From the NCBI GenBank assembly GCA_016748015.1, contig JAAOMT010000183.1, forward strand, positions 507,877-571,876: a DNA stretch of 64,000 nucleotides. Reading direction: 5' to 3'. The translations under genes and the position numbers were made by a program. Below the pieces are notes generated by a model, which saw only the letters and a program-made list of their open reading frames with translations, ran no database searches and had not been told where the DNA came from. Source of the DNA: Geosiphon pyriformis uo1 (taxonomy: Eukaryota > Fungi > Glomeromycota). Of the stretch, positions 877-36,059 are shown piece after piece. Each line of letters starts with the position of its first letter. Positions within the stretch are counted from its first letter, which is position 1.

Positions 877-1722
877 TGTTACTCATAAAAAAAAAACAAA
901 TATAGGGAGAATAGTAGACCAATGAGTGAATAATATGTAGCATATGAGCATATTGCTCAGCAATATAGAGCAATGATAGAAATCACAGCACATTGCTCAG
1001 CAATATGGAGTGATATTAGAAAATTAGAGCACATTGTTCAGCAATGTGAACATTGCTCAAGAAATTATAGCACATCACTCAGGAATATGAGCGATCTCAT
1101 AGAACATTAATTATGTATATATAGCAGTAACGTTAGAAGTAGAAAAATAAGAAGAATTCTTTAGTTAGAAATCTTCTATTCACAAATATTAAATAAATAA
1201 ATCATTTACTATTCAAATCTACTCTCTACTATCAACACTTTATGTTGATAGCAATTGATACCTAATTATGCTGAAACAATAGCTCTTGATCATGGCTATT
1301 GATGAGATACTAATATGCATATTGCCTTGGCTCATTTCTTTATTTTTTTTATTTATTTCTTTTTTTAATTTTTACTGTTATATACTAACTGATTAAAGAT
1401 TAAAGCACTGAGTAATTGACATCATAGATAGTCTGATAAAAGACCCAGAAATAAGGGTAAAATTATATATATATTAATGGATAGCTTACCAGAAGGGCAC
1501 AACTGCCAGAATAAACTGGCCACCAAGCTGAAGACAGAAATTGGGAACACAACTTACCAACCAACTATATTAGCATTGAATCTCTGTTCATTATACAAAA
1601 GACTCAACTCTAAAACCTTCAGATACAACCAATATATTAGTATCATCAATATTGTCAAGATATTGAGCACCAAGTTACAAATTTGTTATTTGATTTGAGA
1701 TCTCAAATAATTATCTATAATA
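877..1722 (+). repeat. 5' LTR of element A
   Basis: Direct repeat of 10034-10904; starts TGTTACT, ends TATAATA (mutated TGTAACA); 4 copies of a ~40-bp unit at ~948-1100. Confidence 0.95.
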
Positions 1723-1724
1723 TT

Positions 1725-1740
1725 TGGTGCTCTTTGTGAA
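1725..1740 (+). promoter_or_regulatory. Primer-binding site TGGTGCTCTTTGTGAA
   Basis: TGG-starting motif 2 nt after the 5' LTR, complementary to a tRNA 3' end ...GAGCACCA; the same motif follows the 5' LTRs of elements B and C; tRNA identity not determined. Confidence 0.85.
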
Positions 1741-1784
1741 ATATAATCTTACAGAGAACAGCACCAACCATAATCATCCAAACA

Positions 1785-3900
1785 GTGGCAGAATCCAAAG
1801 AAATAGGAACAAACTATTTAGAATTTGCAAAATCTTTATTCCAATACTATCACACTCATCTCGGATTAACAAATAATAGTTGGCCAACCAAATCAGCTTT
1901 CAATTGCTATGTTAACAAAAGAATAGTATATCACTTGGGAGGCCAAAGAGATCCAGAATCCGCCTTCAACAACTTTTTCAATAAATTACTTCAAGCACCA
2001 CCCTTCCACAAAATTACCTATTTGCACTTCTAATTACAGAAATAAACAGGGAAATTGAAAAATACACCAAACAGAGATTTCCTATCACTTTTGCAGACAA
2101 AGACAAAAGAAGACTACAAACACCAACAAGAACACCAAAGCAAATCCAACTACTTACTTGGAAGAAACAAAAGTTTAATTCACCTGTTAATTTATCATAT
2201 TACCACACACTCGGAAGCACTATCAATATAATAAACATAGTTACAACAAGCATGAAAATGCCACTAAACAGAATCTCATTCCAAAGTAAACAAAAGAAGA
2301 CAGAGTTATTAAGAACATATGGCAATTATTTCGAGAGATTTAAATCACGATCAACAACGCCATCAGAAATTTGATCACCACCACCACAACCAGATTTCAG
2401 AGCCATTAGTTCTTGGGAAATAACCAACTCTAAGGAAGAAGAGAGTAGTGATCAGGAAGTTAATAAGCAAAACCCAATTCTAGAACATTCAGAAATTAAA
2501 ACTCTGGTTAATCAAACTCCAGAAAATCAGAATAATCAAAACTCTGACATAATTAATTAGCACTTATCTCCAGTAATCATGATCAATCTACCACCAGTTC
2601 CATTAAACACCCAACAGCAACAACAGCCACAATTGCTACCTCAACAACAAATTCAGCAGCAACCACAACCCAACTTAGATCTAATGGCATACACACCAAT
2701 AGCCAAACTCGAAAAATTCACTGGCAAAAAAAATAACACCCAAGTATGGCTAAATGATGTGGAGAAAGCCATTGCAGCTAATGGATGAAATGACACCAAA
2801 GCCATGCAAGCCATCCCATATTTTCTCCAGAATACTGCCAATTCATGATACTAAAGTCTGGTTAACAAACCCCAAGATTTCAATGCATTCAAAATTGAGT
2901 TCTTAAGATACTTCAGCAACAATAATAGCATTAACAGGCTAGCAAATACATTCATTACCATCAAACAAGGAGAAAATGAAGCAGTCACTACTTACTTAGG
3001 ATGCTTCCACAAGAATCTGCACCAGATCTAAGCCATTGACACCAATTATTTCACAATGGCCCAGATCCTAAATCAGTTTATTCACAGATTACACAGTAGC
3101 ATCCTGCAATGCATATGTTCATTGCATTCTATTAATCTGCAAGCAGCCATTACAAATGCCCAAGATTTTGAAGCCATTAAACTTGAAGCTAACCACGCCC
3201 AAGCCATTAATCTAGTAATAAATGGATCATCTGAATTGAATTCCAAATTGAAACAATTTAGTGATTCCATCAATCAGAAATTAGAGGGATACTTAGCTGA
3301 CAATTACACAATTTATCAACTACCATAACAATGCTATAATTCTGGAAATGTGAATTGTTTCCAGAATCAGTCACATTTATTATCATTGACCAATCAACAG
3401 TAGCAACAAGAAATGCATGTTTGCCACTATTGTAATAAACAAGGACACCTACAAATTAATTGCCACCATCACTTAAATAACCAACAATCAGAAAATCAAT
3501 ATCAAAACCTTGATTGCTGGTTTCAAATTCTGAATAACCTATCAAATTCAGAGCCATATTATCAGAATTACATACCTATGACACAGCAGCCACTTTATCA
3601 TCCACTAGTATATCAAGTACCAATTTATCAACTGACAACACCAACAATTTATCAGCCACAGTCACAACCCATTTATTAGCCACAGTTTTAGGTAATCTAT
3701 CAGCCTCAACAAATTCAAATATTGCCACAAAACTTATCTCAAAATGAAATCTAAAGACCGAAATTGACCCAACAAAGCTGGAGATTGTTGATAGTAGTTC
3801 ATCAACCAATCTCCAATTCTTTCACACAACCAGCAGAATCTTGACAATGGAATTCGGGCACTGAGTATGCCCAAAACCCAAATTCTCAGAACTATTTAAG
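1785..3900 (+). pseudogene. gag (capsid + CCHC zinc knuckle) of element A
   Basis: 'KLEKFTG...WLNDVEKAIAANG', 'QILNQFI', 'CHYCNKQGHLQINC' at ~3420-3463; interrupted by stops. Confidence 0.85.
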
Positions 3901-4089
3901 TCTCCTGGTTACCACAGAAGATACCCAACCCAATAATTTGGAGACCAACCAACAACCAATACTTACCAGCAACATTTTACCAGCTACTATTACTGAGAAC
4001 AAATCACTGGACACCATCTTCCCATTTAAACTCAAAGAACTGTTGACCATGCTATTATTTAGTGAAGCTGCTCTGGAAGAAAAATCTAT

Positions 4090-4450
4090 TATGGCCATGT
4101 ATACTGATGTCAAAGTTGATGGCCACTCTATCAAACTGATTCTAGACAGTGAATTAGCTGGCAGCATTATTACAAAACAACTCATGGATCAATTAAGTCG
4201 CCAAGTTGATTGTGCTGCCAGTGCCAGGATCATAACTGCTGATGGAGCAACAAAAACTCCCATTGGTGAGATCAATAACTTCTCCATTGAAGTCAATGAT
4301 ATCATGGTCCCAATCAAAGTACTGATTATGGAAGCCACCCAATACCAAGCACTTGTTGAGAATGATTGGCTATCCAAAACCAATGCATTGCTTGATTGGA
4401 ATATGCAGGAGCTTCAAATTAGCCAGAACAGTTAACACACACACATACCA
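4090..4450 (+). pseudogene. Aspartic protease of element A
   Basis: 'IKLILDSELAGSII' (decayed DSG), 'IITADG', 'ALVENDWL' (decayed LGNDWL). Confidence 0.85.
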
Positions 4451-4794
4451 ACCATGTGTGACTATTTTAAGATCACCAACTCAACAATCCCACTTATCAA
4501 ATTCGAGGAAGAGGAAAAGAAACCTACCTGAGAAGCCTATCAAGTTTTCTGGGCCAACACCGAACACAACAAGCTGCTGCCAGTACCTTTGTGAGATGAC
4601 AACAGTAAAGGAAAGCAGAGCAAAGAACTTACTTGGAAAGCTGACCAAGCCTGGGAAACTGACAATAACCAGAAAGAACAAATAAATTGGGAATGGAAAG
4701 AAGACAAAAAGGGAAAAGGAAAAAGAAAGAAAGAAGAACCAACAACTGACAGCAACACCACTTATAATTTTTATACTACACCCCACTGATTCAC

Positions 4795-5450
4795 CCAAAA
4801 CTGGTATGCATCAATTGTGGCAAAAAATTGTCGTCAATGAGTGCTTGTTGTGGCAACAATAAGAAGTACACTTCAGCAACAAAATTCTACTGCCATTCAT
4901 GCATCATTGAACACTTTGAAAGGCCAAAACAGGTTGGGAAATAGGACAATGAACCATCTTTGGCTTGTGGAGAAACTTTTCTGGACAAAAAAATATGGAA
5001 CAACATTCCTAGGTGAGGAGGAATGTGTGATGAATTGTGTTAATACAAGATTCTCATAAGCAACTGGATAAAGAAAAAAATGCTTATAGATGCTGCCTGG
5101 AGACAAGCCGTCAAACATTTGGATGGATGTCCACATGACAATGACAAAATCTGGCAAATGACACTCACCAAAATCGAAAAAGCAACACTAAAAGAGATAA
5201 AAACAATTAAAAATAACCCATCTAAACCTATAGAACTCGACTAGGACCCAGAACCAATCATAAATCTCTTAGATCCAAAACAATTCCACAAACATTATTA
5301 AGAGCTAGCACCTATGAGAGAAAAGCAGGAGCAATACTTGAAAGAAATCAACACTCGACTATGTGACTACTGTTTGATTCTATGTGATTTTCAATATTGT
5401 AATAAGTGTAACCTCATTTACAATCCACCACCATGCATAATTTACATGAT
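4795..5450 (+). pseudogene. Cysteine-rich domain of unknown function between protease and dUTPase
   Basis: 'CINCGKKL', 'FYCHSC', 'LACGE', 'MCDELC', 'LCDYCLILCDFQYCNKC'; homologous pattern in family B. Confidence 0.7.
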
Positions 5451-5685
5451 CCTAGAGGAAAAAAAACCAATTAGCAACTGTGCATCAGAATCAGAATCAA
5501 TTTTCAATCCTGATTCAAACTCTGACAATAACAATAATGAAAATAATAGTTCCAGCTCTGCTCAAAATGGCAACAAAAATATCAGCAATTCAGACTCCGA
5601 TTTAAACCCTGAAATATATATTGCACTTCCTGATCTATTTAAAGAGCAGGAACTCAAATAGTATAGTGACAATAATAAAGGTATC

Positions 5686-6080
5686 ATGTCAGAATGCATG
5701 TATAATACTGATGCAGAGTTTGATTTAAGATATCTGGAAAAAAAAGCCATCAAATTAGAACCAAATTCATGCACATGTATTGATCTCAAAATAGCTCTGG
5801 AAATTCCAGCAACAATTATGGTTCAATTAGCATCTAGAAGTAGCCTAGCAAAAAAAAGAATCAACATCAGAGGAGGAATAATTGACACAAGATATGTAAA
5901 AAATATCATTGTTATGCTACAAAATGACTTTGAAAAGGCCTATATCATAGAGCCAAATGAAAAGATAGCACAAGCAATATTTCTATCTCTGGTTAAAATA
6001 GCTCAATTAGTGTCAGTGGAAAACAGAGAAGAATTAGGAATTACTGCTAAAGGGATATAGAGATTCAGATCAATGAGTAG
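5686..6080 (+). pseudogene. Trimeric dUTPase domain in the Gypsy polyprotein
   Basis: All five motifs in decayed form: DA(E/G)FDL, ASRSSLA, GGIIDTRY, KIAQAI, AKGI*RFRS (from RGxxGFGS). Confidence 0.9.
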
Positions 6081-6649
6081 AATAGACATACTAATTAATA
6101 TGGTGAAAAAAGAGATTATTGACAAAAAAGAAATTATCTCAACCTGTCAATCAATTTCCATTTCACCATATGACCAGTAAATATTACCTATAAAAGGTAA
6201 AGTAAAGAATTAGGCTTAGTTGTTTAAAGCAGAAGCCACCATTTGCAAATCAGGAGAGATTGGACTCATTAATCTCTACATATTAGTCAAAAGCCCCAAA
6301 AATATTAAAATTCTCATTTACAACACAACTGAAAGTGTCATTGAAATACCAAAGGGAACTATTATTGGATATTTGACCACTGAAGTTGAGGATCAACCAC
6401 CAAATCACATTCCAGATTTTCCACAGCTTTGTGGATATGTGGATATTACATCACAAACTATCTATGGACAAAGTGAATGTTATCTGCTCCAACCAGAACA
6501 ATTGGAACAAATGAACATGAGAAATCTGATCCACTTCAATGGATGCAACTTAAGATGTTACTCAACAATTTCAATAATATCTTTGCTAGCAAAAATGAAT
6601 TTGGCCAAACCAACATCATCTGGCATCAAATCAAGACTGAAAATTCAAT

Positions 6650-9318
6650 GCCAATTAAACAAAGAGCATACAGAGTACCATCAGCTAGCCATGAAATCAT
6701 TTGTCAAGAAATCAACTGGATGCTTGACAATGGGCTAATTTAGTCATTAATGAGTCCATAGTTGTCACCAGTAGTACTAATTCATAAGAAGAATGGAAAA
6801 ATTTGTTTTTGTGTAGATTACTGAAAACTGAATGGAGTAACAAAAGGTGATAGCTATCCAACTCCAAAAATTCAAGAACTATTTAATGCTTTTGGAGGAA
6901 ATAAATGGTTCTCAATACTAGACTTAGATAGTGGTTACTGGCAAGTAGCCATGGATCCAGCCAACAAAGAAAAAACAGTATTCATCACAAGAAAAAAAAA
7001 TTTTGAGTTTGAAGTCATGCCATTTGGCTTGATGAATACTCCAGCAACATTCTAATGGCTCATGGAAATTGTCTATACTGGATTACTATGGAAATTAGTA
7101 GTTATATACTTGGATGACACCAATGTGTTCTCAAAAACATTTAATAATCATTTGCATTATCTCTAACAAGTATTCAAAAGGTTAAGAAGAGCTGGATTGA
7201 AACTAAATGCAATCAAATGTTTCTTTAGAAAAATTAAACTCAAGTTTTTGGGACATGTGGTAAGCAAAAACGGAATCAAAACAGATCCAAACAAGATCAA
7301 AGTAGTTAAGAACTTTCCAGTACCAGCCAACTTGTCAGAACTAAGGGCATTTTTGGGATTCACAGGCTACTATTGCTACTTCATTAAGGACTTTTTTAAA
7401 CTAGCTCAGCCACTTCACCATCTACAAACCAAGAATGTGAAGTATGAATGGACTGAAGCTCAACAAGAAGCATTCAACACATTGAGAAGAAAGCTTATCC
7501 AAGCTTTAGTATTGATGTATCCAGATCACAACAAACCATTCATCATTACTACTGATGCATCAGGTCAAGCATTGGGAGCAGTACTATCACAGAAAAGACC
7601 TGATGGAAGAGAGCATCCAGTAGCTTATGCCAGTAGAAGTTTAAGTCCAGCTAAAAAGAACTATAGAACTCCAGCACTGAAACACTTAGCAATCTATTAG
7701 GCTGTCATAAAATGGAGAGAATACTTAAGCCAAAAGTTTGAAATATATATGGATCACAAAGGATTGACTTCAATTCAGAAACAAAAATTTGCAGACAATT
7801 GTCATGTCAGATGGAAAATAGAACTTTCACCATTCAATTATACAGTACATTATAAAAAGGGAAAAAACAATAAAAATGCCAATGGATTGTCATGAATGAG
7901 ACAAATCTAAAAACATTTCAACCCAAAAATATAACAAAAAATGAACACACAAAAATATTAACAACTCCAGTATTATATAAATACTCAATTGTTTAAGGAG
8001 AAATTATCTTAAAAAGAACAAAACAACATAAAACAGCAATCAAAATATTTCATCAATTATCAAAATATACTTTACCAAAAAAACAGAAGAAATTCAGACC
8101 AACCAACCAGAGTAATTACAGAATCAGAAAAAGAAACAATATTGTTTAACATGCATTAAGATCCAACAGCAAGACATTTTTATAAAGAAGCAACCATAGA
8201 AAGAACCAGAAAAAAATACTATTGGCCATCAATGTATTCAAACATCATTTAATATGTTCAAAATTGTGATGCTTGTCAAAAAAGAGGTGAAACAAAACCC
8301 AGTGAACCATTAAAACCAATTAAAGTAGGACAATCATTTGATCACATTGGAATTGACTTAGTCAGACCATTAACAATTACCAGTAAAGGCAACAGATATA
8401 TTGCAGTAGCTATGGACTATTTCACAAAATGGCCAGAAGCAAAAGCCATTCAAAAAGCAGATACAGAATTCATTGCCGAATTTGTCCATCAAGATTTGAT
8501 ATGTCAACATGAATGTCCAAAAGAACTACTATCAGATCAAGGAACTCATTTTGTAAATAAAACATTAACAGAATTAAGTTAGAGATTTGAAATAAAAAGA
8601 CCATTATCATTACCATATCATTCACAAACCAATAGACTAGTTGAAAGATTCAATAAAACATTGTGTAAAACAATCGCCAAAATCAGTCAAGAAAACCAAG
8701 ATGAATGGAATTTGTTTATACCATTAGTATTATTTGCTTATCGAACAATGAAACAAGATACTACACAAGTAACACCATTTGAATTAGTATATAGTAGAAC
8801 AGCAACATTATCAGTTAAGATAAAAGTCAACACATATCCAACTAAACCAATAACAGAAACTAATTTTTAAAAAACATTGTTAAGAAAAACATATGATCTA
8901 ATAGAAACACTAAAAAACAGACAACAAAAAGCAGCTGATAACATTCAAAAGTCTCAAGAAAAGCAAAAAAAATGACATGATAACCAATTACCAAATAAAC
9001 CAGTTGAATTCAAGATTAGAGACAAAGTACTTCTACATCATACCAAAGTGGAAAAACAATGGAGTAGAAAATTCGACTCCAAATGGGATAGACCATTTTA
9101 CATAGAAAAAATTCTTGGAAATAGAGCTTATAAATTAAGATGGGACAACAAAATCTTAACCAAAGCAGCACATAGTGATTGACTGAAACCATATTACCAA
9201 ATAGCATTATCATTTACCAATAACATTTCACAATTGGAAGTACAACAAATACTAGTTCAACCAGAGGAGATTTCACAAGATTTGAAACCAATCATAATCA
9301 TTGAACCAAACATGTAAA
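6650..9318 (+). pseudogene. RT - RNase H - integrase of element A
   Basis: 'LDLDSGYWQV', 'VMPFGLMN', 'YLDDT', 'TTDASG', HHCC, 'GIDLV..DYFTKW', 'SDQGTHF', GPY/F-like tail; no chromodomain recognised. Confidence 0.95.
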
Positions 9319-9319
9319 A

Positions 9320-10019
9320 TCAAACAATGAAAAAGTATATAAAAACATGGTATACGCGACAAAGACAACTAAGAAAAAAAATGGAAATACTAGATTATAT
9401 TTACATTATAGCTCAACAATTATTCCAGGCCTTAAGTTAACAATCTTTAAACATGGAAATTATTATTATTAACAACCAAACAATTTGCTATCAAAACACC
9501 AAAAAAAAGACAAAGAATACACTATATCAGCGGTTACCAAAGAATAATAAAAACTGGTTAGATAAAATAATAGAAAAAGTAAAGAACACTTTTGGGAAAA
9601 TACCTATTATGGCACCAACAGAAAAACTTACAAAAGAGAATTGGAAGCAATAGACAGAACAACTTCTAATATCATATTGTTACTATCAGTTAGGTCGAAA
9701 GTTGAATATTCAAGAGTTGTATATTAACAAATCCAAGAGGATATTTAACCAAAACATAATACAGCAAATTAAAAAATTTATTGGAAAAAAGACAAACTCA
9801 ACACTACATGTGAGAACAATTTACTGACTACACAACATATTTCAAAACTATCTAGAAATACTGTTACACTCTGACATGAAAATCATAATCATTAACCAAT
9901 GGGAAAAAATGAACAATATACAAGTAAAAGATGTGAAAAATAAAGTCGAATAAACAATACTAGAAAAAGAAGTATTAGAGCTAATTCAGAATAAAGATTT
10001 TAACAGAGCTTAATATTAA
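9320..10019 (+). pseudogene. Extra ORF3 between integrase and PPT (unknown function)
   Basis: ~230-codon decayed frame with 'YCYYQLGRKLNIQELYINKSKRIFNQ..IY*LHNIF..INQWEKM'; co-linear copy at 59525-60230; homologues in family B and the outer element. Confidence 0.7.
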
Positions 10020-10033
10020 AAAGAAGGAGATAA
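10018..10033 (+). promoter_or_regulatory. Polypurine tract of element A
   Basis: AAAAAGAAGGAGATAA immediately before the 3' LTR. Confidence 0.8.
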
Positions 10034-10904
10034 TGTTACTTATAAAAAGAAAAACAGATATAAGGAGAATAGTAAACCAATGAGTGAATAGTATGTAGTA
10101 TGTGAGCACATTGTTCAGCAATGTAGAGCAATGATAAAAATCACAGCACATTGCTCAGCAATATAGAGCAATATCAGAAAACATGGCACATTACTCAGCA
10201 ATGTGGAGCAATGTTAAAAAATTAGAGCACATCACTTAGCAATGTAAGCATTGCTCAAAAAATCATAGCATATTGCTTGGAAATGTGAGTGATCTTGTAA
10301 AACATCAATTATGTATATATAGCAGTAGCATTAAAAGTAGAAAGATAAGAAGAATTCTTTAGTTAAAAATCTTCTATCCACAAATATTAAATAAATAAAT
10401 CATTCACTATCCAAATTCACTCTCTACTATTAACACTTTATATTGACTATGCTGAAACAATAGTTCTTGATTATAGCTATTAATGAGATACTAATGTGCA
10501 CATTGCCTTGGCTCATTTCTTTATTTTCTTTTATTTATTTCTTTCTTTAATTTTTACTGTTATATACTAACTGATTAAGGATTAAAGTGTTGAATAATTG
10601 ATGTCACGGATAGCCTAGTAAAAAACTCAGAAATAAGGATAAAATTATATATATATTAATGGATAGCTTACCAGAAAGACATGACTGCCAAAATAAACTG
10701 GCCATCAAGCTGAAGACAGAAATTGGGAACACAACTCACCAACCAATTACATCAGTATTAAATTTCTGTTCATTATACAAAGGACTCAACTCTAAAATCT
10801 TCAGATACAACCAACATACCAGTATTACCAGTATTGTCAAGATATTGAGCACCAAGTTACAAATTTGTTATTTGATTTGAAACTCTAAATAATCATATGT
10901 AACA
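10034..10904 (+). repeat. 3' LTR of element A
   Basis: Direct repeat of 877-1722; 5 copies of the 40-bp unit (10106-10300); ~19-bp deletion near 10446 relative to the 5' LTR. Confidence 0.95.
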
Positions 10905-12250
10905 ATGGCCAGAAGCAAAAGCCATTCAAAGAGCAAATGCAGAATTTGTTGTTGAATTTGTTCATCAAAATTTGATTTGTTGACACAAATGCCCAAAAAA
11001 ATTACTATTTAACCAAAAAACTCACTTTGCAAATAGAACATTAGCAGAATTAAGTTAAAGATTTGGAATTAAAAGACCATTATTATTACCATACTATTCA
11101 CAAACAAATAGTTTAGTAGAAAGATTTAATAGAACATTATGTGAAGCAATTGCCAAAATCAGCCAAGAAAACCAGAATGAATGGAATTTGTTAATACTAT
11201 CAGTATTATTTGCTTATCAAACAATGAAGCAAAACACCACACAAGCAACACTATTTAAATTAGTATATAATAGAACAGCAATATTACCAGTAGAAACAAA
11301 AGTCAGCACATATCTAACAGAACCAATAACAGAAGACAATTTTCAAGAAACATTATTAAAAAGAACATATGACTTAATAAAAACACTAGAAAACAAATGA
11401 GAAGGAGCAGCTGATAATATTCAAAAGTCACAAGAAAAACAAAAAAAAAGACACAATAACCAACTATCAGATAAACCAGTTGAATTTAAAATTGGAGACA
11501 AAATACTTTTACATCAAACCAAAGCAAAAAAACAATAGAGTGAGAAATTTGACTCCAAATAGGACAGACCATTTTACATAGAAGAAATTTTTGAAAATAG
11601 AGCTTATAAATTAAGATAGAACAACAAAATCTTAGCCAAAGCAGTACATAGTAATTGACTAAAACCATATTATTATATAGTATTGTTATTCACTAATAAT
11701 ATTCTATAACTAGAAGTACAATAAATATTAGTTCAACCAGAGGAAATTCTACAAGATTTGAAACCAATTATAATCATTAAATCAAACACATCAAATTAAA
11801 CAACCAAAAAAGTATATAAAGACATAGTATACATGACAAAAGATACCAAAAAAATAGAAATTACTAACAATATACACACACTGACACAGCAATTTTTCCA
11901 ATTGATTCAACAACAGAATATAAAAATTACCATTAACTAACAAACCATTCGATATAAAAATACAAAAAAGAGACCTCAACAAAAAAAACAGAAAAAACCA
12001 GAAACCATCATTGACAAAATAATAACAAAAGTAAAAGTGGCAATAGAAATACAAACAAAAGATGTATTATATCAAGAGATAATGATAGAAATGTGGAATT
12101 GGTGGATACAACAATTTCCAAGAAACTTTTGTTATTTCCACTTGAGACAACATTTGAATATTCAAAACTTATATACAGATAAAACAAAATAATTATTCAA
12201 CACAACAATATTACAACAACTTGAACAATTTGTGGAAAAAAACAATCTAA
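10905..12250 (+). mobile_element. Outer Gypsy element continued: integrase C-terminal part and truncated ORF3; no 3' LTR
   Basis: Sequence resumes exactly at W|PEAKAI after the TSD; similar to 8433-9320; ends abruptly against an inverted LINE ORF1 fragment (right end approximate). Confidence 0.85.
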
Positions 12251-14450
12251 TCACACAAAAGACAAATAAACCTAAAAAATCACATTTAAAAAATGAATGT
12301 TCAAAATGTCCACACTTTTTACAACAAACTAAATTCAATTTGGTCCAAAAGAATTTCATATCATTAAAAATTGGTTTTATATAAAAAGCAAATTCCAGTT
12401 TCTTATTTAATTCAAAATTAACTACAACACAGCAAATTTTATTGTTTGTTTTAAATAACTGATTTATAATGCAAATTTTTTCACTAATTTTTTCTAACAA
12501 AATATCCAGATCATGTGCAATTGTTTCTACAAAAAGTATAAACAAAAGAGCCTTATATTAATTTCTAGACATTTATATATTATAATTTTTTATAGTTTTA
12601 GTCACTATTATAGGTGATTATTTGGGTGTTAAAACAAATAACAAACCTGTAACTTGGTACTCAATAGTTAAAAATATTGGTAATTTCTAAAAATTTTAGT
12701 TGAGTTTTTTGTATAATAGATAGAAATTTAATTAATGGTTTTTTTTGTAAATTTTTTTTTTAATATAATAGCCAGTTTATTTTGGCAGTTGTGTCTTTTT
12801 GGTAAGCTATTCTTAAATTTTTATCTTTATTCCCAGATTTTTTACCAGGCTATTTTTAACATTAAATACTTAATGCTTAATTTTTTTAATCAATTAGCAA
12901 ACAACAAAAAAAATAAAACAAAATAAAATAAAACAAAATAAAAAAAATAAAAAAAAATAGAAAAAAAAAATAAAAAATTAGTACTCTGTCAATAGCTGTG
13001 ATTAAAAGCTATTGGTTTAGTGTAATTAAGTATTGAATTCTATTAACATAGAATACTAATAGTATGAAATTGATTAATATTTCTTAATTAAATAATAGTA
13101 ATATAAATTCAGGTAATAATTAATATTTTATTGATATGTAATTTGATTTTACTTTAAGTTATAGAAAATTACCTTTTGAAAAAAAAAATATTGGATAATT
13201 AATGAGTTGTAATTAATTCTTTTGGATCAATTCTGTCTTTTTTGTTTTTAATACTTTTGTTATATATACATAATTTTTATTATATAAGTTCTTGTATTTT
13301 TTTAAGCAATGTGTCCTATTTTTTCTTATTACTAAGCAGTATGCCATAATTTACTAACAATATATCTATTGCTAAGCAATATGTTATAATTTTTTAATAT
13401 TGTGCTTACTTATTAAATTCTATTCTCTTATTGGTCTATTTTTCTATCTGTTTTTCTTACTTTCTTTTTTGTACTTTTTTATAAGTAACATTATTTACAC
13501 TAAATTTTTTTTGATAAAAAATAACTACTTAGCTATTAACAACTCTGCTTGACTCAATTTGGCAAATTTTACTACAGTTTTTTGTTACAATTTAATTAAT
13601 TACAATTGGATTGAAACAATTTGACCAAACTTAGCTACTATGACAATGATTATTTTTTTTAATGTATTTATAAAAATTTTTTTAATTATTACAATCTAAT
13701 CTGAATGTATTTCTTGTTTTTTAAGATTGTTGTTTATCTTGATGTCTTTTTTTTTAACCAATAATACAGCTTTATTTATGTTTTTTTTTGATATAAATAT
13801 AAATCTAATAATCTTTTTAAATTTTAAAAAAATAGTGGTTTCTCCAAAACTATTAATTATTGAAAAAAAATTTCTAATTACCTAAGTTTTTGTTGTTGCT
13901 GACTTGTTTTTTATTGCTAAAAAATTAATATTCAAAGCAAAAAATTTTTTAATGAGTTTTTACTATTTTAGGATTAATCTATTTTTTGTCTAAAGATAGA
14001 TTAAAAAAAAGAAAAAAAAGTTTTTTATTTTTATTTATGTTAAAGTTAATTGTACTAATAGAAAAGTTTTATTCCAAATCAGTATGAATTTTTTTAGTCT
14101 TAAGGGTTATTACTATTAAACCAAAAAAACTATTATTATTAATAACTACTAAAACATTATTATTTTTACTATTATTAGATTTACTATCTATGTTTAAATA
14201 TACACTACTACTAGCATTAAGTTTGACCAAAAAAATATCTTTTTTATTATTAGAATACTTAATATTACTTATAAAAACTTTTTTTTTTGGAAAAAAAAAC
14301 CTCTAATTAGTCTATAAAAAACTTTTTTAAATGTTTTTTTTTAGACATATTACTATCAAAAGCAGTCACTAAGTTTACTATAAAAAGATTATTCACTTAT
14401 AAATATTGAAAAACAAAAACAAAAAACTTTTTTTTCAAAAAACTGCTCTT
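12250..14450 (-). mobile_element. Heavily decayed LINE ORF1 fragment, split by a solo LTR
   Basis: Minus-strand 'CKKCGHFEHSFFKC' knuckle, 'KALLFILFVETIAHDL', 'AKFGQIVSIQL*LIKL*QKTVVKF' matching ORF1 at ~30700-31170; ends approximate. Confidence 0.75.
12606..13490 (-). repeat. Solo LTR related to families A/C
   Basis: Reverse complement begins TGTTACTTAT (13490) and ends ...ATCACCTATAATA (12606); shares the LTR 3' part and CATTGCT(C/T)AGCAAT-type units; flanks TCAC/TTAT are a 4-bp TSD after two C>T changes. Confidence 0.8.
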
Positions 14451-15098
14451 TGGAAAATTTAAACATAAAAAAAAAACTTTTTTTTTTTATATACTTTATT
14501 AAAATATAATAAAATAAAATAAAATATAAAAAAAGTTTTTAGCAACTTTTAAAATTTATTTTTAATTAAAAAAAATGTTTAAAAAAAACCATTTTTATAA
14601 TGTTTAATTTAATTGTTTTTACAACTAAAAAAACTTTTTAAGTTATTGTTTTTCTTAATTATTATATAAAAAATAAAAGTTGTTTTTTATTTTTATTAAA
14701 TTATAATTAATAATTTTTTTAATATTAAAATTAATGCAAATAACAAATTGTTTTACCAATAAATTTCAAAGCTTAAAATAAATCTTGAAAATATTATAAA
14801 ATTACCATTTAATAATGTAAATTTGCTAATAACTTTTTGATATCAGATTTTTTACAACTTGCAAAAAATGACTCATAATAACGTGGGGTGTGACAACGAG
14901 AGAAATTTTCTCATCAACAAGATCAAACTCCAACCCCGCAAAAAAATTTTCACTGCTCATTAACACCTTGACTCTGCAACAGTAACGAAACCAAGTGTGG
15001 TGACTCTCAAACGAAAAAGTCTCTTTCATTATAAACGAGACTTTTTTGACGACCTTGAAGAATTTAAATTTTACCTTGATAAAATATAGAAATCCAAC

Positions 15099-15728
15099 AT
15101 GTTAAAACAATTTACGTCACAATCAAAGGGCAACCTCCTTCGCGCGATATTTCCACAACATAGCAGTTTCACTGCTGCTTTAACGGCTCCTAGCTACACA
15201 AGAAGCTTTTCGACCACCAGCCCGAGCTTATTGGCCACCGTTTATTTTGGTAATGTGAGTTGGAACGCAACTGAACAAGATTTTAGTGAACTTATCACAA
15301 AATATGGTGAGGTTACTGTTCGTCTGCCACGCGACGCAATGGGTCGTGTTCGTGGTTTTGCTTTCGCCGAGTTCAAAGAAGACGAAGCTGCTGAGAAAGC
15401 CATATCGGAACTGGATGGTGCAACTTTCTTGGGTAGAGATTTGAGAGTAAGTTTGGCTCAACCAAATACGGGAGGTAGTCGAGATAGATACAGTGGTGAT
15501 AGGTTCGGTGGTGGTGGTGGTGGTGGTGGTGGATACGGTTCTCCAAGAAGCTTTAGTGGCGATCGAGGTGGTGGTGGTTTTGGTGGTGGCAGACCTGGTG
15601 GCGGTGGTTTTGGTGGCAGACCTGGTGGTGATAGTTTCGGTGGTGGCAGACCTGGTGGCTTCGGTGGTGGTGGTGATCGAGGAGGTTATGGCGCACCACG
15701 TCGTGATCGATTTGATGAGGAAGAATAA
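15099..15728 (+). CDS. Single-RRM glycine-rich RNA-binding protein, probably mitochondrially targeted; intronless
   Basis: RNP2 'VYFGNV', RNP1 'RGFAFAEF', GGGFGGGRP/RGG tail; N-terminal ~45 aa rich in R/K/S/T with no acidic residue. Confidence 0.9.
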   Translation: MLKQFTSQSKGNLLRAIFPQHSSFTAALTAPSYTRSFSTTSPSLLATVYFGNVSWNATEQDFSELITKYGEVTVRLPRDAMGRVRGFAFAEFKEDEAAEKAISELDGATFLGRDLRVSLAQPNTGGSRDRYSGDRFGGGGGGGGGYGSPRSFSGDRGGGGFGGGRPGGGGFGGRPGGDSFGGGRPGGFGGGGDRGGYGAPRRDRFDEEE

Positions 15729-16281
15729 TCTTGACAAAGCCTTTTTTTCTTTCACTGATAGGTAAAATTTCACATTTTCTTGAATAATTAACTACAAGCA
15801 GACTGTACAATTCTTAAAAATCCTGTTATTTTCCCTGTGTTATCTAAGAAAATAAACTCAGCTTCTTCTTATGGGAGTAGAAAATTTTCTATAGCTCAGG
15901 AAAAAGTTTATCAAAAGCCGATTTAACCAAAGGTGCAAGGCTATTCAAAAGCATAATGGGAATATAATATTATAGAAGCGTAAACATAAAATAGGATATT
16001 TGCGTTTCTCTTTCAAATATTATAATATTCCAATTTGGTATCATTAATAATAATAATAATAATAACATCAAAAGCTAAATTGAATTTGGAATGGAAGTCT
16101 GAACCAAATCTTTTTGAATTTTCTAAACACTAAGGTTTTTGATGTCTAATAAAACCAATTTAATTTTTATAATTATTTCAACAGTGCGTACATGTGACAT
16201 TTTCCACTAAGTTAAATTTATATGATTTTTCAAGTTCAAAAATCAACAGAAAAGCCGCTCCTTATTTATTCACCCCTCAGG

Positions 16282-17544
16282 ATGTCTTACCTTAATTGTA
16301 CACCTGGCAGTAAGATACTGTTAGTTGGTTCTTCAAAAACTAATCCCTCTCAGATTGAAGAAACTAGGACACAATTCATTAAACAAGTCACCGAGACAGG
16401 GGTGGTTGATGCAAAAACCTTGGAACAATTGAATGAAGGTTTGAAAAATTATAGCTCTTTCGATCCTTTGGGAACTCGAATATTCCATTCGCTAAAAAAA
16501 TTCTTTTCAACAGATTCACTTCCTTCTTCTACATATAATGCTATCTACAGCAACAACTTTCCCCCGATCGCTTTTCAGCATTCCACCAAAGCTCTCACAC
16601 ACCTTGCTTCTGCTCTTCTGCCTAGTGGAGTTTTACATATCAAAGAACCAATTCTTTTAGCACCACACACTTTTCGAGAAGATTTACCTGTGATACGTAC
16701 CACTCAAAATCTCGTGAGTGAGCTTAAATTTGCTGGATTTGTGGACTTGGAGATCAAAGGCGCAGCTAGAGTTGAGGTCGAAGAAATATCCAGAATTGTC
16801 AAACAAGTTTGGGGATTTACTGATCAAGCAAAGCAAGAAGAATTGGTTGAAGCCTTGAATGGTCAATTGCATGTGGTTGCAATAGTTGCAAAGAAACCTT
16901 CTTACGAAATCGGTGCTTCATTTACACTACCATTTTCCAAGGCCACAGAAAGTATGTTGAACACCAAGAAAATTTGCTTTGTTGAAAAATTTCACAACAC
17001 TATTGAAAGACAAAAACGCTCCTTAATGAATTCCATTATATAAGCAACGAACTTGAATAAGGCAGCTATTTGGACCCTTTCTGCCGAAGAGGATAATGAA
17101 CATGCCGAGTTAGAAGATGAAGATGAATTGTTAGATGAAGAAGATTTGATAAAGCCTAAGCAGAGCTCTTTGGCTCGTAAGTTCTTCCATCATGGATTGA
17201 GCAGTATCTATCAAAGTCATTAAATTTCCGATTTTTATTAGGACCTGACTGTGAAACCGATGGGAAGCGGAAAGCCTGCAAGAATTGTTCTTGCGGTCTG
17301 GCAGAAGAATTAGAATTGAAGGCTAAAATTAACCAGCCCACAATCTCTTCATGTGGAAATGTTAAGTATAAGATATTGTAGAATTTACAAATTCGCATTC
17401 ACTCATAAGAAATTTCTTTTTCAGTGTTATCTTGGAGATGCATTTCGGTGTTCGACTTGCCCTTCCTTGGGAATGCCGGCCTTCAAGCCAGGAGAAAAGG
17501 TTGTACTTGCCGGAAATCTGATGAAAGATGATATTGAAGTATGA
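16282..17544 (+). CDS. DRE2: Fe-S cluster assembly protein Dre2 / anamorsin (CIAPIN1)
   Basis: Exons ~16282-16438, 16514-16951, 17045-17176, 17242-17360, 17425-17544; CX8CX2CXC ([15 protein letters not shown]) and CX2CX7CX2C ([15 protein letters not shown]), '[11 protein letters not shown]'. Confidence 0.95.
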
Positions 17545-17887
17545 GTATTTATGCCACGTGATCAAAAAATATTGTCACTGATTAAACAGGGAGAAAATAA
17601 TTCTAGTAAAAGATATATAGATATAATTGGTTCTAGGGTAGAAGATTTCAACGTGTTTCTAGAAACCAGAAGATTATGTTAACTAGAAAGAATCGGTAAT
17701 ACCTGACCAAATTTATAAAAATTTAATAGACGTCTAGTATCAAAGTATCAGGTATCTTGAATGAATATTAACAGAGGTGGAATTATAGGTCCAGTCGGAT
17801 TTTTATATTATGCGCCGATGATACTATAATCAAAGCCAAGTTCTATTTTTACACCAATTCTTCTCGGTTTTTTTAGTTGGTTTGCAC

Positions 17888-19234
17888 CTATCTTGCACTT
17901 TTGGGTTTTGGGCTTCGGCCCAGAAACCAACCAGCGCTCTTTGGAGCTGTGGTCTCGGGAATATTACTAAGAGATATGCGACGGAAGGGAATTATTCGCC
18001 ATCCAATAATTAGACAATTTCTGGATAATCGAAAGATTTAATTTCATTAACTCACCTCAATGTCAATCGCATATCCGTCGGGTGTCTTGGAATTACATGT
18101 TTGAGAATAAATTTTTGAGCAGAAGATGCCCCCTAAACGTCGAAAATGTTTTAAAAAAAATAGATGCCGTATTTTCATGTTGAGTAATAGTGAAGTGAAT
18201 CAAATTTAATTCATTTAAATCTTTCACCTTATCGTGATATATTGCTCCAACAAGTGCCAAAAGCGCCCTGCCAGTTGTTCGAGTCTCCCCTTTTGGAATT
18301 GCAACAAATCCTAAGGCTAAAGCATTCTGTAATTCTTGGAGATTTATCTGGTAATTTTTTGTTCAAATTAGCCATTTTAATGGTTCAAGTATACTATAAT
18401 TCATTAACTTACAGGCGTCCATCGCAATAGCTTATTCAATCCAAGTTGTTTTCCAATAAGCCCAAGAATTTTAGGATCGATATATGATTCCACACGTTCA
18501 AAAAGTTCATTTTCCTGAACTTCGTGGTCAAGTAAGAACTCAGTTGCATATAATTGAATCACACTCTCGCCTATATATACATAAGTCCATCAGGTGATCC
18601 AAAAAGGTTGATTGCAGAATTTACCTTTTATACAATTTACCGAGAAATTCCAGTCTTTCCATAGTTGGAACAGTTCCATGTTTATATGATCTGTGTGTGA
18701 CTGCTTGAGTGAGTACGGATGGATTAGTAAAATCTACGTCGATCTTTTTGGCAAATTTTGCGTACTCTTCTGTTTCATAATCTTCGCCTCTTTCATGGGA
18801 GGATGCGAGGGATGATATGGTAGCAGCTTGTTTTATCACTTATAATATTAATAGATTGAATCAGAAGAAAATGAATTGAGCTTTGGGATTCAAACATGAT
18901 AAAAACCAAATTGGAACACGTGAATTTATCTTCCGTGGGTATTGCTGTTAGAAACAAAAAATTTATTCAACAGCGACCAAAATTGAAAGACAGCTTTATA
19001 TTGGCCACAGATTGACTCTTTGGAATGTATGAAGTATTATTCGATAGAGCTTCGATGGGCCTTTTATTAATAATAATGAAATTTTTTACTGAACTTACCA
19101 TAAGGAAACGATAAAAGGGAGGGGGGTGTATGAAGTTTGCAATGAAAGGCAGGCTTCCTCGCAGTTGCCGATGCCGCTGTCCAAAGTGGTGACAATATTA
19201 ATTTTGCAGTGAGGAGGTAAGCTCGATGGGGCAT
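17888..19234 (-). CDS. RNase III-fold mitochondrial large-subunit ribosomal protein (mL57/MRPL15-like)
   Basis: Six GT-AG-joined exons; basic N-terminal presequence-like region; 'LTQAVTHRSY..ERLEFLG', 'ALVGAIYHDKGASSAQKFI'. Confidence 0.8.
18924..19062 (-). ncRNA. Intronic box H/ACA snoRNA, probable snR46/SNORA16-type guide for LSU rRNA
   Basis: In the ~260-nt first intron: hairpin 1 (GGCC..GGCC base, CTCT/AGAG upper stem), H box ATATAA (19001-18996) 14 nt from the pocket, hairpin 2, AUA-type 3' box (18929-18927); pocket strands CATCGAAG and TCAA match LSU rRNA UUGA-U-N-CUUCGAUG. Confidence 0.75.
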
Positions 19235-19806
19235 TTTTTATTAAAAAAAATTTATAGGTCTTTATAAGCAGTGTCCTGAAAAAATTTAATGGTCATCTGA
19301 CGTCTATACACCACCTGATTGGATCAGACAGCTCGACTGGCCTTTGTGGAATCACGCGTTGCCGAAGAAGCCAATTGGTTAAATCGATCAAAAATGCCAT
19401 CAACAAAGTGGTCAACAAAATAGACATTTCCTAATTATAAAAAAATTCCCCTGACATTTCTTCCTTAGTATTGGGTATACTTCTCTTTGGAAGTTAAAAC
19501 TCTAAAAATTTCTTTTGAGTGATTTTTCTTTTCAGTTGAACTCTAACGTGTTCAATCTTTTTAAGACGTTTTACGTTAAATACTTTTAGTAAGAAAACTA
19601 TCATCTATATACAAGTTTACTTTCTTTTATAAAATCGCAGCACTCCTCAATTTCGCAATCTACCACACCTTTGCATCTTTGTAACCTCAAACATTAATTG
19701 TAAAAAGTGTTTTAAAACTTCACACTTTATAGCGATTTGCACCTCCACACCAATACATTGCTTTCTTTAAATTAGGTTCCCATTTAGGTGAACGTTTCAA
19801 CTCAAA

Positions 19807-22800
19807 ATGTCTTCCGCAAGTGTAAGGCAATCAAAAGGAAGAAGACAAGAGTTCAACTCTTTTCAAAACTCCAACTCAAGGTAATTTCGATCCAAGCTCC
19901 TACTTTAAGAGGTTGATGAAACTTCTATTTTTGACCTCTCCAAAGCTTTAAACTCTATTAAATTCATACTTCATTTACCTGTAACAAGCCATACGAATCG
20001 TAATGCCAAGACTAATAAGTGGGCATCTAATAATTCCCAACATCCTGCCAACATACCACCGCGTAATAATCAGTCGATTCCTCCAATACCACCTTCAGGA
20101 ACTGCATCTTCTACCTCTAGTCATAATTTAAACACGTCTTCAATACCTACTGTTTCAAGTACACACAAATCCCTTGAAAATTCTATCCACGAAGAGGCCG
20201 CATCAAAGCATATGCATGATCGCATGTTGTGCTTGCTCGCAAATTTTGTGGTAAGTTGCTTTAAATATTCAAACTATTATTAATGATATCAGTGATCCCT
20301 CGAGTGACATTATAAAATATATATTCTTAGGGTATGACGGTCCAAGTCACTAGTAAGAATGGTAACAAATATGAAGGACTTTTTCACACTGCATCCACAG
20401 AAGGAGAACTTGGCGTGGTGTTGAAATTAGCCCGAAAAGTTTTGACAAAAGCAGAGGAAAAGACAAATAATATTAACAAAGTGATACCTACCTTCATTAT
20501 AATGGCAAAAGATTGTATGGCAATCGAGGCCTCTGGTATCGACTTTTCTGCTTCTGAAAAGAATTATTCATCAGAACGTGAAGGTCTCGTTTTTCTCTTT
20601 TGTTATCTCTTTGTAATATATCTCCATAACTTGAAATTAATATTATTTATTACGTTAATAACAGTATTTCGAACAGATACAGATATCAGTGGCCGTGCAG
20701 AAATACGTGAAAGAGAACTACTCAAATGGAGCCCAGATGAACACGGAGGGGGTGAAGCCATTGGTGGCTTGGAATATCCTTTCTTTATTATTGAAGAAAA
20801 GACTCCTCATTTTTTTGTTTGGTCACATAATGAAGATAATTTCCTTGACTGTTCCATACAGACGACCCGGCTCAAGAAACCGGAAATACAGTCGTTTGGG
20901 ATCAGTTTGTCGCAAATGAGAAACTGTTTGGCCTGAAAACAGATTTCGATGAAGAAATTTATACAACAAAATTGGATCGTTCAAAGGCTGATTTTAAAGA
21001 ACGAGAAAGACAAGCTATCCAATTAGCGAATGAAATTACACGTGTTAGTAAATTTTTAAAGGACTACATGATCTAGAAGAACTTTTTCCTCACTTTCTTG
21101 ATTTAATGAAAAATTGAAGATATTATTGGGATTCTTTTTAACCCATGCAAGACATTCATAGCTATAAAAATTTCGAGCTAGTAATTTCCGATTAAAATTT
21201 TATTTTTATTATAGACATCGACAAACAATGTCCACATGATGGAAGAACGTGGTATCATGGTCGAAGAAAGTCATATGGATGAAGAAGACAGGTTAATATT
21301 TTTTGAAATGTTAAATATATAAATATATTTTCAAATCTTTGGTAAGTTTACATCTATTTATGGCTCTAGATACGGCGCAGTAGTTCGTATCAGGGATACG
21401 AGCAAATATATGCCACCTGCTCTTCGTAAAATACAAGAGCAACAAAACGCAGTAAATGGGAAAAAGTCAGATCCTCCCAAAGAACCAGCCAAAGAGGTCA
21501 AATCGAAGCCTACAGCTCCAGAAGTTAAATCTCTACCTGCATCAGTCCTGGTACAACCCACTCCTCCCATTCAAAAAACCCCACCTTTTAATCTCGCACA
21601 ATATCGAATTTCTCAGGATATAACACAGTTACTCAATACTCATTCCCAAAGGGTAAGAGCATCTGATTTCGTTCTGTTTTCCCTCTGCTTTGCATTTTAA
21701 ATTATTTTCTTTTCCTTATGAAAGAAACATGGTATAGACGCGCGTGGTAAACCTATTGAAGGTAAAAATTTATTTATTTCATGACTGATTTTAAATAGCT
21801 AATAATAATCCTAACTGAATTTATTTCATTTAAACAAGCTCAAATAATGAACACTTTTAAACAATTTGCAAGTAATGAAAAGGAACGGCTTCAACCAAGA
21901 AAACAAGCTATCCTCAGGAAAGAGATGGACGGTAAAGTTGCTGAATTGGCTAAATGGGGTAAAAATTTCAAGGTACCTAGATCATTTTAAAATCTTTGAA
22001 TTTAAAATTAATTTGGCTAATCCCGATTATGTACATCATTATATTACAGTTGAATTCCCCTCTGCCATCAGATTTAATACCCATTCTGACGAAGGATGAA
22101 AGCAAGAGACAACAACTGGCTGCGAAATCCACAAAACCATCAACAGAAAAAGATAAGAACAAAGAAAAAGATAAATCACCAAAAGAAATAATCAAGGAAA
22201 AAGAAAAGGAAAAGGAAAAGGAAAAGGAAAAAGAAAAGGCTCCCACAAATACATTAGAGACGAGGTCAGAGAGTAAAAAGCATGAAATAAAAATCACAGA
22301 AGAAAAAACAAAATTGAACAGCGAGATTATTGAAGCCAAGCCAGTCTCAGATAAAGCCATTCATGAAAAACCTGGTTCTAATCAGACAGAAAAAGTTGCT
22401 ACAGTATTTCCGCCCGGTAAGGTTCCATCAACAACTCCAACTAACTCTCAATTCAAACTTAATGCCAAAGCGTCGGAATGGAGACCTAACCCGAATGCTG
22501 CGACCTTTACTCCGGTATACAATTTGTTTATTATTTATAAATCTGCATCCATCTTAACCAGCTCTGAGCTCATTCATAGCATCCTTTTGTAGACTACTCC
22601 AACCTCTAGTACTGGTGACAAGAGGTCTCCTGGGTCTGTAAGTATGTTCGAATTCTCTTGTGGCTGACGTCAGATTTCGGTAACTCAATATCGTAATCTA
22701 TTCACTTTAGTCACCTTTCTTCGGAAATCGGCAATTAAAAAAGAGTCCAGTCTCTTTAAAAGATAGTTTCAGCCCTTTCCAAAAAGGGAAACCATTACCT

Positions 22801-23870
22801 AATCCTAGTACCATTCGTAAGTTTTTGCTAGCGATAGAATGGGTACCACCAAATTTTATTATTAATGTGGTCTTCAATTTTACATCCAGCCCCCACTTGG
22901 CCATTTGGTCAAAGACCATTTCGACACCAATTTTCAGTTACAAATAGTTTTGAGGAGGATATATATACTCAAGCTGCCGTATCCCAAGGATTTGGATTTA
23001 CAGCATATCCTGTCGCACCACCATTCCGGTATCCTACTGCTACACAATATGTTAGTGTACCACAAATTACAATGCAACAAGGAGGTCCTCTGCCATATAT
23101 GCAACCTGGAGTAGGTTCTAAGCGGCTCATTCAATTGTTATAATAAATTTCTTCAATTTTGACACATTTTTGTATTTTCCTATCAACAGTTTGTACCCAG
23201 CATTCCATTCACCACTCCCCCATTACCAACAAATGGTGCACCTCGTAAGCATTTACTTCTTGATTTATCAGATCTTCATAATAATATGAACCACAATTTA
23301 ACATACTTTTTTGGCAATTTGGAATACATAGCCGCCATGTATAGTCCTCAAATACCCTCAGTGATCCCACCTCGTATGTAAACTTTCCGTAATTTTGTTG
23401 AGTCTTATGCTCTGACTAAAGCTCAAATTTTGATTTTTCATTGGGCAGAGCATTTCAGCACACAAGGATTTCCTTCCCCTGGCCGTTCACCAATGGTCCC
23501 TGCTGGCATTCATCCTCAGATGTATGCTTATCAAAATCCCCACGGTAATAGTCTATGTGATTCCTTTTGTACTATTATTAACTATTAGTAGAAATAACAA
23601 ATTAAATTGTATTTTTATTCTAGCAATGCCGCCCATGATGCGTTATCCACACGAGGGTATGCCTGTTCACGTTCCCCCAAATGGTGTAATGATAGGACAA
23701 CGACCGATAATGATGGAACCACATTATGTCCAACAACCTGAAGGCGCGCCAATGGGTAACAATTAAAATCCCAACCGTGTTTACCTATCCTAAAATTCAT
23801 TGAGGTTTTCTGATTTAAGTTCATTCTCTCAGAAGGCATGCCAGTCTCCGAACCGGCAGCAACACAGTAA
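19807..23870 (+). CDS. PBP1: Ataxin-2 / Pbp1 (LSm, LsmAD, PAM2, Pro-rich tail); multi-exon
   Basis: 'MHDRMLCLLANFVGMTVQVTSKNGNKYEGLF', 'FRTDTDIS', '[29 protein letters not shown]', 'DEEDRYGAVVR', PAM2 'KLNAKASEWRP'. Confidence 0.92.
20774..20859 (+). other. U12-type (minor spliceosome) AT-AC intron in PBP1
   Basis: 5' ATATCCTTT, branch site TTCCTTGAC (20841-20849), 3' AC; removal restores the frame GGLE-DDPAQE. Confidence 0.9.
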
Positions 23871-25631: not shown

Positions 25632-25914
25632 TGTCGAAAAGTTCTATCGCGAGTAAACGCAAAAATTTTTTTTATCAAATATTGTTTCTTCATGGTCTTA
25701 AATACACGTCACCACACTACACTAAAATAACGTGATATCACGCCTGTAAAAAGTTTTGGCCTAAAAAACCAAGCCATTTCTTTCTAACTTTATAGTTAAG
25801 TTTTAAAATATAAGTTGCAAATAACTTGTATTTAAATTTTGTAATATTGTAGTTCTTAAAAAAATAATTGTTAATTTAATTTTAATATATTTGTAAAATA
25901 TAATAATATTGTTA

Positions 25915-36052: not shown

Positions 36053-36059
36053 TAATCTC

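Follow-up and report, generated by a model that had tools for sequence, protein, structure and literature searches.

A Ty3/Gypsy retrotransposon lineage of Geosiphon pyriformis with an integrase encoded apart from Pol

We analysed a window of 64,000 nucleotides of the genome of Geosiphon pyriformis uo1 (contig JAAOMT010000183.1, positions 507,877 to 571,876 of the forward strand). Near its start lies element A, a dead, decayed copy of a non-chromoviral Ty3/Gypsy retrotransposon, in which a stop codon separates reverse transcriptase (RT) and RNase H from integrase. A stop follows RNase H in all four of the window copies A, B, C and D, and an intact relative from a metagenome has this arrangement too. 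The element is unusual in its stand-alone integrase, and the stop was overlooked in a preliminary description of this DNA, which dwelt on accessory modules; the layout of that cargo is already in print, which makes it less surprising than was then held. On balance we read element A as a probable three-gene element, with Gag, protease, a Cys-rich domain, dUTPase, RT and RNase H in the first open reading frame (ORF1), integrase in the second, and a further protein in ORF3; the integrase would likely be made by reinitiation, with ribosomes resuming translation past the RNase H stop.

A stop codon between RNase H and integrase

ORF1 of element A ends at a stop codon at 7908-7910, followed by a 30-nt spacer, up to 7940, that holds a second in-frame stop at 7932-7934. 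Both stops are common to A and to copies C and D of the same family, and the first is also present in B, an element of another family. In A, C and D an ATG (position 7941 in A) opens the integrase after the second stop. This separate ORF (7941-9317) has the HHCC and DDE motifs and a GPF/SH3-like module. Since the stop parts RNase H from integrase, the three enzymes RT, RNase H and integrase do not form one polyprotein. From 6477 to 10033 element A is interrupted by 24 in-frame stops, which can mostly be read as C>T or G>A changes; D has six of the 24 as well. Eight stops of A fall where C overlaps, and of these C and D both have just the two at 7908 and 7932. In a contig pile-up (X1), where 91,303 contigs align to element A (a measure of abundance, not of copy number), no variant of at least 4% is listed at either stop or at the integrase ATG, and positions 7907, 7911, 7919 and 7940 vary.

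An intact relative of element A is carried by L002, a circularly permuted metagenomic contig of 9250 bp. Its ORF1 of 2018 codons encodes Gag, a knuckle, protease, a Cys insert, dUTPase, RT and RNase H, and ends after RNase H. The integrase begins in a different frame, its start overlapping the end of ORF1 as AUG-5nt-UAA; a second ATG, 34 nt past the stop, aligns with the integrase ATG of A. Downstream of the integrase are an ORF3 of 198 aa and then one LTR (long terminal repeat). The best solved-structure match of the L002 RT is the Ty3 RT (E 4e-92). L002 was among the top four loci (L002-L005) examined from a dUTPase-based metagenome scan that gave 80, the other 76 being at about 33-42% identity. 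In three scans of viral contigs the sole find was L001, an unrelated env-bearing Gypsy element; this IMG/VR contig has, at 948-8111, one frame of 2387 codons ending in an envelope-like region, and falls outside the clade of A.

Integrase is typically part of the Pol polyprotein in Ty3/Gypsy elements. This is not so in A, B, C, D, L002 or L122, a locus described below. The hallmarks that A does possess are TG...CA LTR ends, a primer binding site of the tRNA type, a polypurine tract, a target-site duplication (TSD) and the order protease-RT-RNase H-integrase with an RT of Gypsy type. The preliminary description had seen no recognisable chromodomain, and Pfam gave none either, with cut-offs of E<=0.1 for A, B and D and of E<=1 for the L002 integrase C-terminus. 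RNA folding of the RNase H-integrase junctions was no better than that of shuffles.

The split integrase is a trait that follows an RT clade, and the dUTPase and Cys domain are optional cargo of some of its sub-lineages. Among 120 long RT relatives, 116 were aligned over more than 370 residues, and 43 of these group with the window RT. An in-frame integrase is absent from 39 of the 43 clade proteins, as against 12 of the 73 others (Fisher p = 9e-16, which is overstated, the rows being related). Of the 39, 21 stop at RNase H or close to it, although contig ends may have truncated two of these, and 18 carry other cargo there; cluster mates terminate at identical lengths on contigs of 3-7 kb. The named members come from Rhizophagus irregularis, R. 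clarus and Cetraspora pellucida, and metagenomic elements also belong to the clade. In a careful tree of 41 rows, from which an out-of-frame B row, the long-branch P0126 and many near-duplicate rows had been dropped, the clade is separated from two rows of chromovirus type and from 18 further rows with support of 98/93. The branch between it and the chromovirus-type rows P0142, which bears a chromodomain, and P0136 has support of 100/99, with chromoviruses represented by these two only. The grouping with Rhizophagus, Cetraspora and metagenomic elements bears out the earlier view that the element belongs to a distinct, non-chromoviral lineage.

A blind check set of 79 DNA loci (L082-L160) contained 58 with a fused integrase, four with a separate one, 14 with no integrase seen and three not covering the RNase H end. 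L122 is the only one of these loci inside the clade, and its integrase is separate. The other three separate cases have stops 42-165 codons past RNase H, which look like lesions. All 79 loci are Gypsy RT loci in prokaryote genome records, probably through eukaryotic contamination of bins.

Possible routes to the integrase protein

Gypsy elements and retroviruses normally package their integrase through a Gag-Pol fusion, and a lineage that encodes it separately must express and deliver it by another route. The element presumably moved by ordinary LTR retrotransposition, as is established for its kind. Ribosomes would likely terminate at the RNase H stop and restart at the integrase ATG. The resulting integrase, having no Gag tether, could reach the particle or the cDNA by binding RNA or LTR ends; foamy-virus Pol enters particles by such binding. 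The dUTPase would likely limit uracil uptake during reverse transcription, as has been assumed of the retroviral enzymes (PMC4531489, PMC2864245). Protection against deamination of methyl-C, which yields T, would not be expected of it.

Given the split, we lean slightly towards reinitiation as the route to integrase, because the AUG-5nt-UAA overlap of L002 fits the AUG-n5-stop spacing published for coupled termination-reinitiation, and because SART1 and LINE-1 (the latter with a 63-nt spacer) provide precedents for such coupling (PMC5972666). Several observations weigh against this account. Element A has no stop-start overlap, its gap being 30 nt, and in L122 the gap reaches about 139 nt, where all frames contain stops and an ATG lies upstream, a poor fit to tight coupling. 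Most of the X1 depth has AG before the integrase ATG (7940 A>G), which would suit a splice acceptor, and a variant known at 7893 is missing from the X1 list, so that positions without an entry there may still vary. Four of the 43 clade proteins have integrase joined to RNase H: P0162 is a natural fusion, and the other three are R. clarus gene models in which the end of RNase H is skipped. The clade itself was picked from the first tree, where its support was 0.84, and the trees hold no named GyDB or Repbase clade; its support varies, from a polytomy in a quick mixture-model tree that included one out-of-frame B row to 93 in a tree of 112 rows and 98/93 in the careful one. As to the third gene, the case for homology between the ORF3s of L002 and the window is weak pairwise, where 12 of 1000 shuffles score as high, with the core motifs of the two aligning in a deep alignment, and the signal of purifying selection on ORF3 is marginal (p 0.04).

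The same three-gene layout could be expressed differently, through subgenomic RNAs, spliced or internally initiated, that serve as messages for integrase and ORF3, a possibility that we take seriously while thinking it the less likely one. The stop-to-start arrangement varies from an overlap in L002 through 30 nt in A to about 139 nt in L122; AG stands directly before the ATG in D as well as in most of the X1 depth; and the ORF3s of LTR elements typically come from spliced messages (PMC5408684). Set against this are the AUG-n5-UAA overlap kept in L002 and the lack of AG before the ATG in A itself. That a fused Pol is still made, by recoding (frameshifting or readthrough) or by splicing, seems improbable to us. 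It would accommodate P0162 and the R. clarus models that join RNase H to integrase, but those models lose the C-terminal motif of RNase H. Moreover, no single readthrough or frameshift rule fits A, L002 and L122: A, like C and D, has two in-frame stops ahead of the ATG, and the integrase lies in a new frame in both L002 and L122.

We give very little credence to the view that the stop is a mere product of decay and the element an ordinary dUTPase-bearing Gypsy, which L002 appears to have largely refuted already. The abundance of in-frame stops of C>T or G>A type in A, some of them common to D, would be in its favour. The stop after RNase H is nevertheless common to A, B, C and D, has no listed X1 variant, and is present both in L002, which is otherwise stop-free, and in about 20 intact relatives ending at RNase H. 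Beyond reinitiation in a three-gene element, a bolder and doubtful extension may be imagined. The three-gene clade would be Glomeromycotina-wide, and its integrase, freed from Pol, would be an independently expressed, Ginger1-like transposase, a step between Gypsy retrotransposons and Ginger1 DNA transposons; the ends of ORF1 would serve as slots for cargo that acts on nucleotide pools or binds zinc (dUTPase, NUDIX or Cys domains), and the fast-changing ORF3 would counter the host silencing that lies behind the C>T changes.

Cargo, ORF3 and the surroundings of element A

Two families had been described as sharing the order gag-protease-Cys-rich domain-dUTPase-RT-RNase H-integrase-ORF3. This stands for A and B, by Pfam for gag, protease, dUTPase, RT, RNase H and integrase (by tblastn for the B protease) and by profile comparison and shuffles for the rest; for copy D it stands only from the dUTPase onward, the window holding the dUTPase-to-integrase part. 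All features of element A are on the forward strand. A Gag N-terminal extension of about 300 codons (1740-2683), with a frameshift near 1992, is also present in copy E. Extensions of this kind, of 200-300 codons and unassigned, occur in the window and in L002 (2537-3100), and a CxxCYP motif within them is common to L002 and R. clarus P0156. There follow the Gag capsid and CCHC region (2684-3463; Retrotrans_gag at 2813-3079 and a zinc knuckle at 3422-3463 read from the sequence), an aspartic protease in the Gag frame (4088-4396), the Cys-rich domain (4792-5460), a trimeric-type dUTPase (5695-6054), a beta-rich pre-RT linker (6220-6440) like that of P0171, P0200 and P0162, and RT (6780-7259) and RNase H (7449-7835), both placed by Pfam. 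A second dUTPase at 6220-6440 was considered and found no support, since HHalign gave it a probability of 1% and a generic pre-RT linker 87%. Indels in other copies near the frameshifts of A fit one ancestral ORF1 in A too, and in the active ancestor ORF1 was probably one frame, as in the intact L002.

The Cys-rich domain consists of two CxxC-based clusters, a helical block and a C-x2-C-x3-C-x4-C-x2-C cluster, and the clusters are likely to bind zinc. The corresponding region of B matches the A-family profile at E 1e-18, its first half being common to A and B; the last cluster is common to L002, L003 and P0182. No family match was found for the domain; of the known zinc fingers considered (LIM, PHD and MYM/TRASH), LIM and PHD rows appeared only at E 6-8. 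A low-confidence model (pTM 0.36) had no Foldseek match at E<=0.001, and its best VIA Z of 6.0 (the end-binding region of Mu transposase, with a root-mean-square deviation of 3.5 over 62 residues) is within background. All the best 120 of 207 matches to the Cys-rich region are Geosiphon pyriformis gene models; many 'hypothetical proteins' of this fungus are pieces of the element A family.

The dUTPase (PF00692; E 1e-15 in A and 1e-22 in L002) is decayed in A, and all five of its motifs are readable in L002. Transversions between A and B at codon positions 1/2/3 number 25/24/48 in the Cys domain (p 7e-4), 19/17/50 in the dUTPase (p 2e-6) and 45/24/87 in the integrase, and the third-position excess indicates past purifying selection on all three. 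A dUTPase is present in five of the 43 clade proteins, before RT in three and after RNase H in two, while one member carries NUDIX, and in about 15 a different Cys/His domain follows RNase H. The claim that the accessory modules are a conserved part of the life cycle is not supported for the clade. Since the dUTPase-bearing rows form no supported grouping in the 41-row tree, a single origin of the dUTPase is not shown. A conserved Cys/His domain or a dUTPase after RNase H, or NUDIX before the protease, is seen in P0178, P0169, P0185 and relatives, P0159, P0171 and P0200.

ORF3 (9381-10019, about 212 codons) encodes a soluble, mostly helical protein of an unnamed family. The A-type and B ORF3s are homologous, with a score of 86 versus 41 +/- 7 and none of 1000 shuffles as high. 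Copies A and C are 84% identical in integrase and 58% in ORF3, which makes ORF3 the faster-changing of the two. In a first protein search all four ORF3 matches were Geosiphon pyriformis gene models; a profile search gave 73 matches, five of which look like repetitive false ones, and ten that were looked up comprised eight Geosiphon models and two metagenomic proteins. Copy C carries a divergent ORF3 type (11854-12254), and about five types can be distinguished among the matches, which suggests swapping or fast evolution. No hydrophobic segment was found in any of four members, the highest 19-residue hydropathy being 0.4-1.3; with no segment of the signal or membrane-anchor type in ORF3, element A does not class with env-bearing Gypsy elements or retroviruses, and its ORF3 product likely works inside the cell in an accessory role, not as an envelope. 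Its model (pLDDT 76, pTM 0.62) had no match in PDB or BFVD (best Z 4.9), and Pfam and PDB sequence scans gave no consistent family. That no fold match came up for the Cys domain or ORF3 is not evidence of a new fold.

The 5' LTR of element A (877-1722) starts with TGTTAC, and its end has decayed from ...GTAACA; the 3' LTR (10034-10904) retains TGTTAC...GTAACA. A stretch like a primer binding site (1725-1742) begins with TGGTGC 2 nt past the LTR. This start also occurs in B and L002 and is decayed in copy E; the 64-kb window holds no tRNA gene. Upstream of the 3' LTR (9998-10030), a TTT..GAGCT motif precedes the polypurine tract (10018-10030). The motif, TTT..GAGCT(C)A, lies about 25 nt 5' of the 3' LTR in A (9998-10017), B, D and L002 (1445-1465) and is common to families whose LTRs do not align; its RNA folding was no more stable than that of shuffles. 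In L002 a 16-nt perfect inverted repeat (1481-1496) opens the LTR, with no purine-rich tract before it. The A and B LTRs are dissimilar, as had been described, with no alignment beyond background (negative global scores, obtained with B ends that were then off by a few bases).

Exact 4-bp TSDs, also described before, hold for both elements. Element A is flanked by ATGG at 873-876 and 10905-10908 within copy C, where only a duplication of 4 bp restores the YFTKWPEA frame of the interrupted integrase. The TSD of B is CTGC/GCAG, and the fifth bases are unequal. The TCAC duplication reported for a solo LTR is not exact: its plus-strand flanks, TCAC and TTAT, match at two of four positions, and two C>T changes would account for the mismatch. 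The TSD evidence within the window amounts to two exact 4-bp cases and one imperfect one.

The LTRs of A are identical at 732 of 828 aligned sites, and the differences are 95 transitions and one transversion; in B the ratio is 74:5. The transitions are most frequent at CpG (20 of 22 sites in A), the frequency at other C sites being about 0.2-0.3. Observed/expected CpG is 0.12-0.16 in the elements versus 0.79-0.97 in the genic DNA of the window, where host genes have normal CpG content. The 12% LTR divergence of A says little on age because nearly all of it is deamination-type decay (C>T/G>A), so that the reading of copy divergence as a sign of age is not supported. Repeat-induced point mutation is biased to CpA; the pattern in A and B, unlike it, looks like element-targeted deamination in all contexts.

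Copy C, the host of element A, contributes the RNase H end and integrase start at 1-876 and resumes at 10905-12254 (forward strand) with a divergent ORF3 type. The A-related solo LTR (12606-13490) is on the reverse strand, as is family B (35080-44962), which has the gene order of A and the stop after RNase H, has LTRs unrelated to those of A, and sits within LINE-like (long interspersed nuclear element) sequence. Copy E (45250-47481, forward) is a truncated A-related 5' LTR and gag, and copy D (58644-64000, reverse), truncated by the edge of the window, spans dUTPase to 3' LTR. The B and D insertions sit in decayed LINE-like copies that have an RNase H domain (25860-28961, 34512-35004, 44967-45242 and 54437-58642), and a piece of gag akin to that of family B, in a state of great decay, lies at 53600-54300. 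The window is AT-rich, with fungal-type genes amid nested retroelements; at 15090-25800 and 50137-52081 we noted a glycine-rich RRM protein, anamorsin/Dre2, an ataxin-2/Pbp1-like gene with the ataxin-2 SM domain, and a weak SET-domain match. LTR elements make up 41.2% of the G. pyriformis genome (PMC11952901), in which the family is very abundant.

Comparison with known systems

The protease-dUTPase-RT layout, once considered unusual, is published for several elements. Among fungi, PosPlaTy3-5 of Postia placenta carries its dUTPase between protease and RT as element A does, and dUTPases also occur in Phanerochaete and Tuber (Tmt1) elements (PMC2864245). Unlike A, these group with chromodomain-bearing Gypsy elements and have one or two ORFs with integrase inside Pol; the available text of that paper describes no Cys-rich insert and no separate integrase. 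Burro likewise has a dUTPase between protease and RT (PMC6431247). The rotifer elements Juno, Vesta and TelKA share with A this position of the dUTPase, a GPY/F module without chromodomain and, in many families, an ORF3, and Juno has an extra zinc knuckle before RT; their integrase is within pol, and their ORF3s are env, GDSL, DEDDy or transmembrane proteins, in contrast to the soluble, unnamed ORF3 of A (PMC5408684). Non-primate lentiviruses and betaretroviruses share with A an element-encoded trimeric dUTPase (PMC4531489). The likeness drawn earlier to the lentiviral layout fails, since in lentiviruses the enzyme is placed after RNase H and before integrase; in betaretroviruses it is fused to an N-terminus derived from Gag (PMC4531489). 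A also differs from retroviruses in having no env.

In SART1, LINE-1, victoriviruses and hypoviruses, as in A and L002, the start of the downstream ORF coincides with the upstream stop or follows closely on it; these precedents are non-LTR elements and RNA viruses, with no LTR-retrotransposon integrase among the cases in the available text (PMC5972666). The integrase states in the available part of PMC2774666 are differences of order, truncation or loss, a separate downstream ORF not being among them. No title or abstract on the clade or on a separately encoded Gypsy integrase came from a literature search that covered few subscription journals and neither supplements nor Repbase, and nothing on the clade of A is found in the accessible text of PMC6839031, PMC3248453 or PMC5014426. 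Ylt1 and SN_1006, compared by description only, are like A in belonging to fungal Gypsy clades outside the chromoviruses, and the descriptions available make no mention of a split integrase (PMC2864245, PMC3248453).

Ginger1 shares with A a stand-alone Gypsy-type integrase (H2C2, DDE, GPY/F), TGTNR ends and a 4-bp TSD; compared by description only, it differs in being a DNA transposon with terminal inverted repeats, CCGG/CCGT targets and no RT (PMC2836005). The flanks in our material, ATGG, CTGC, TCAC/TTAT and the single ACAT and ATAC, have CA, TG or TA at their centres, as decayed CpG would give; the TG centre of the A duplication is part of a Trp codon of the host integrase and hence was not CG when A inserted. 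Ylt1, too, makes 4-bp duplications. The split integrase of element A bears on the kinship of Gypsy integrases and Ginger transposases.

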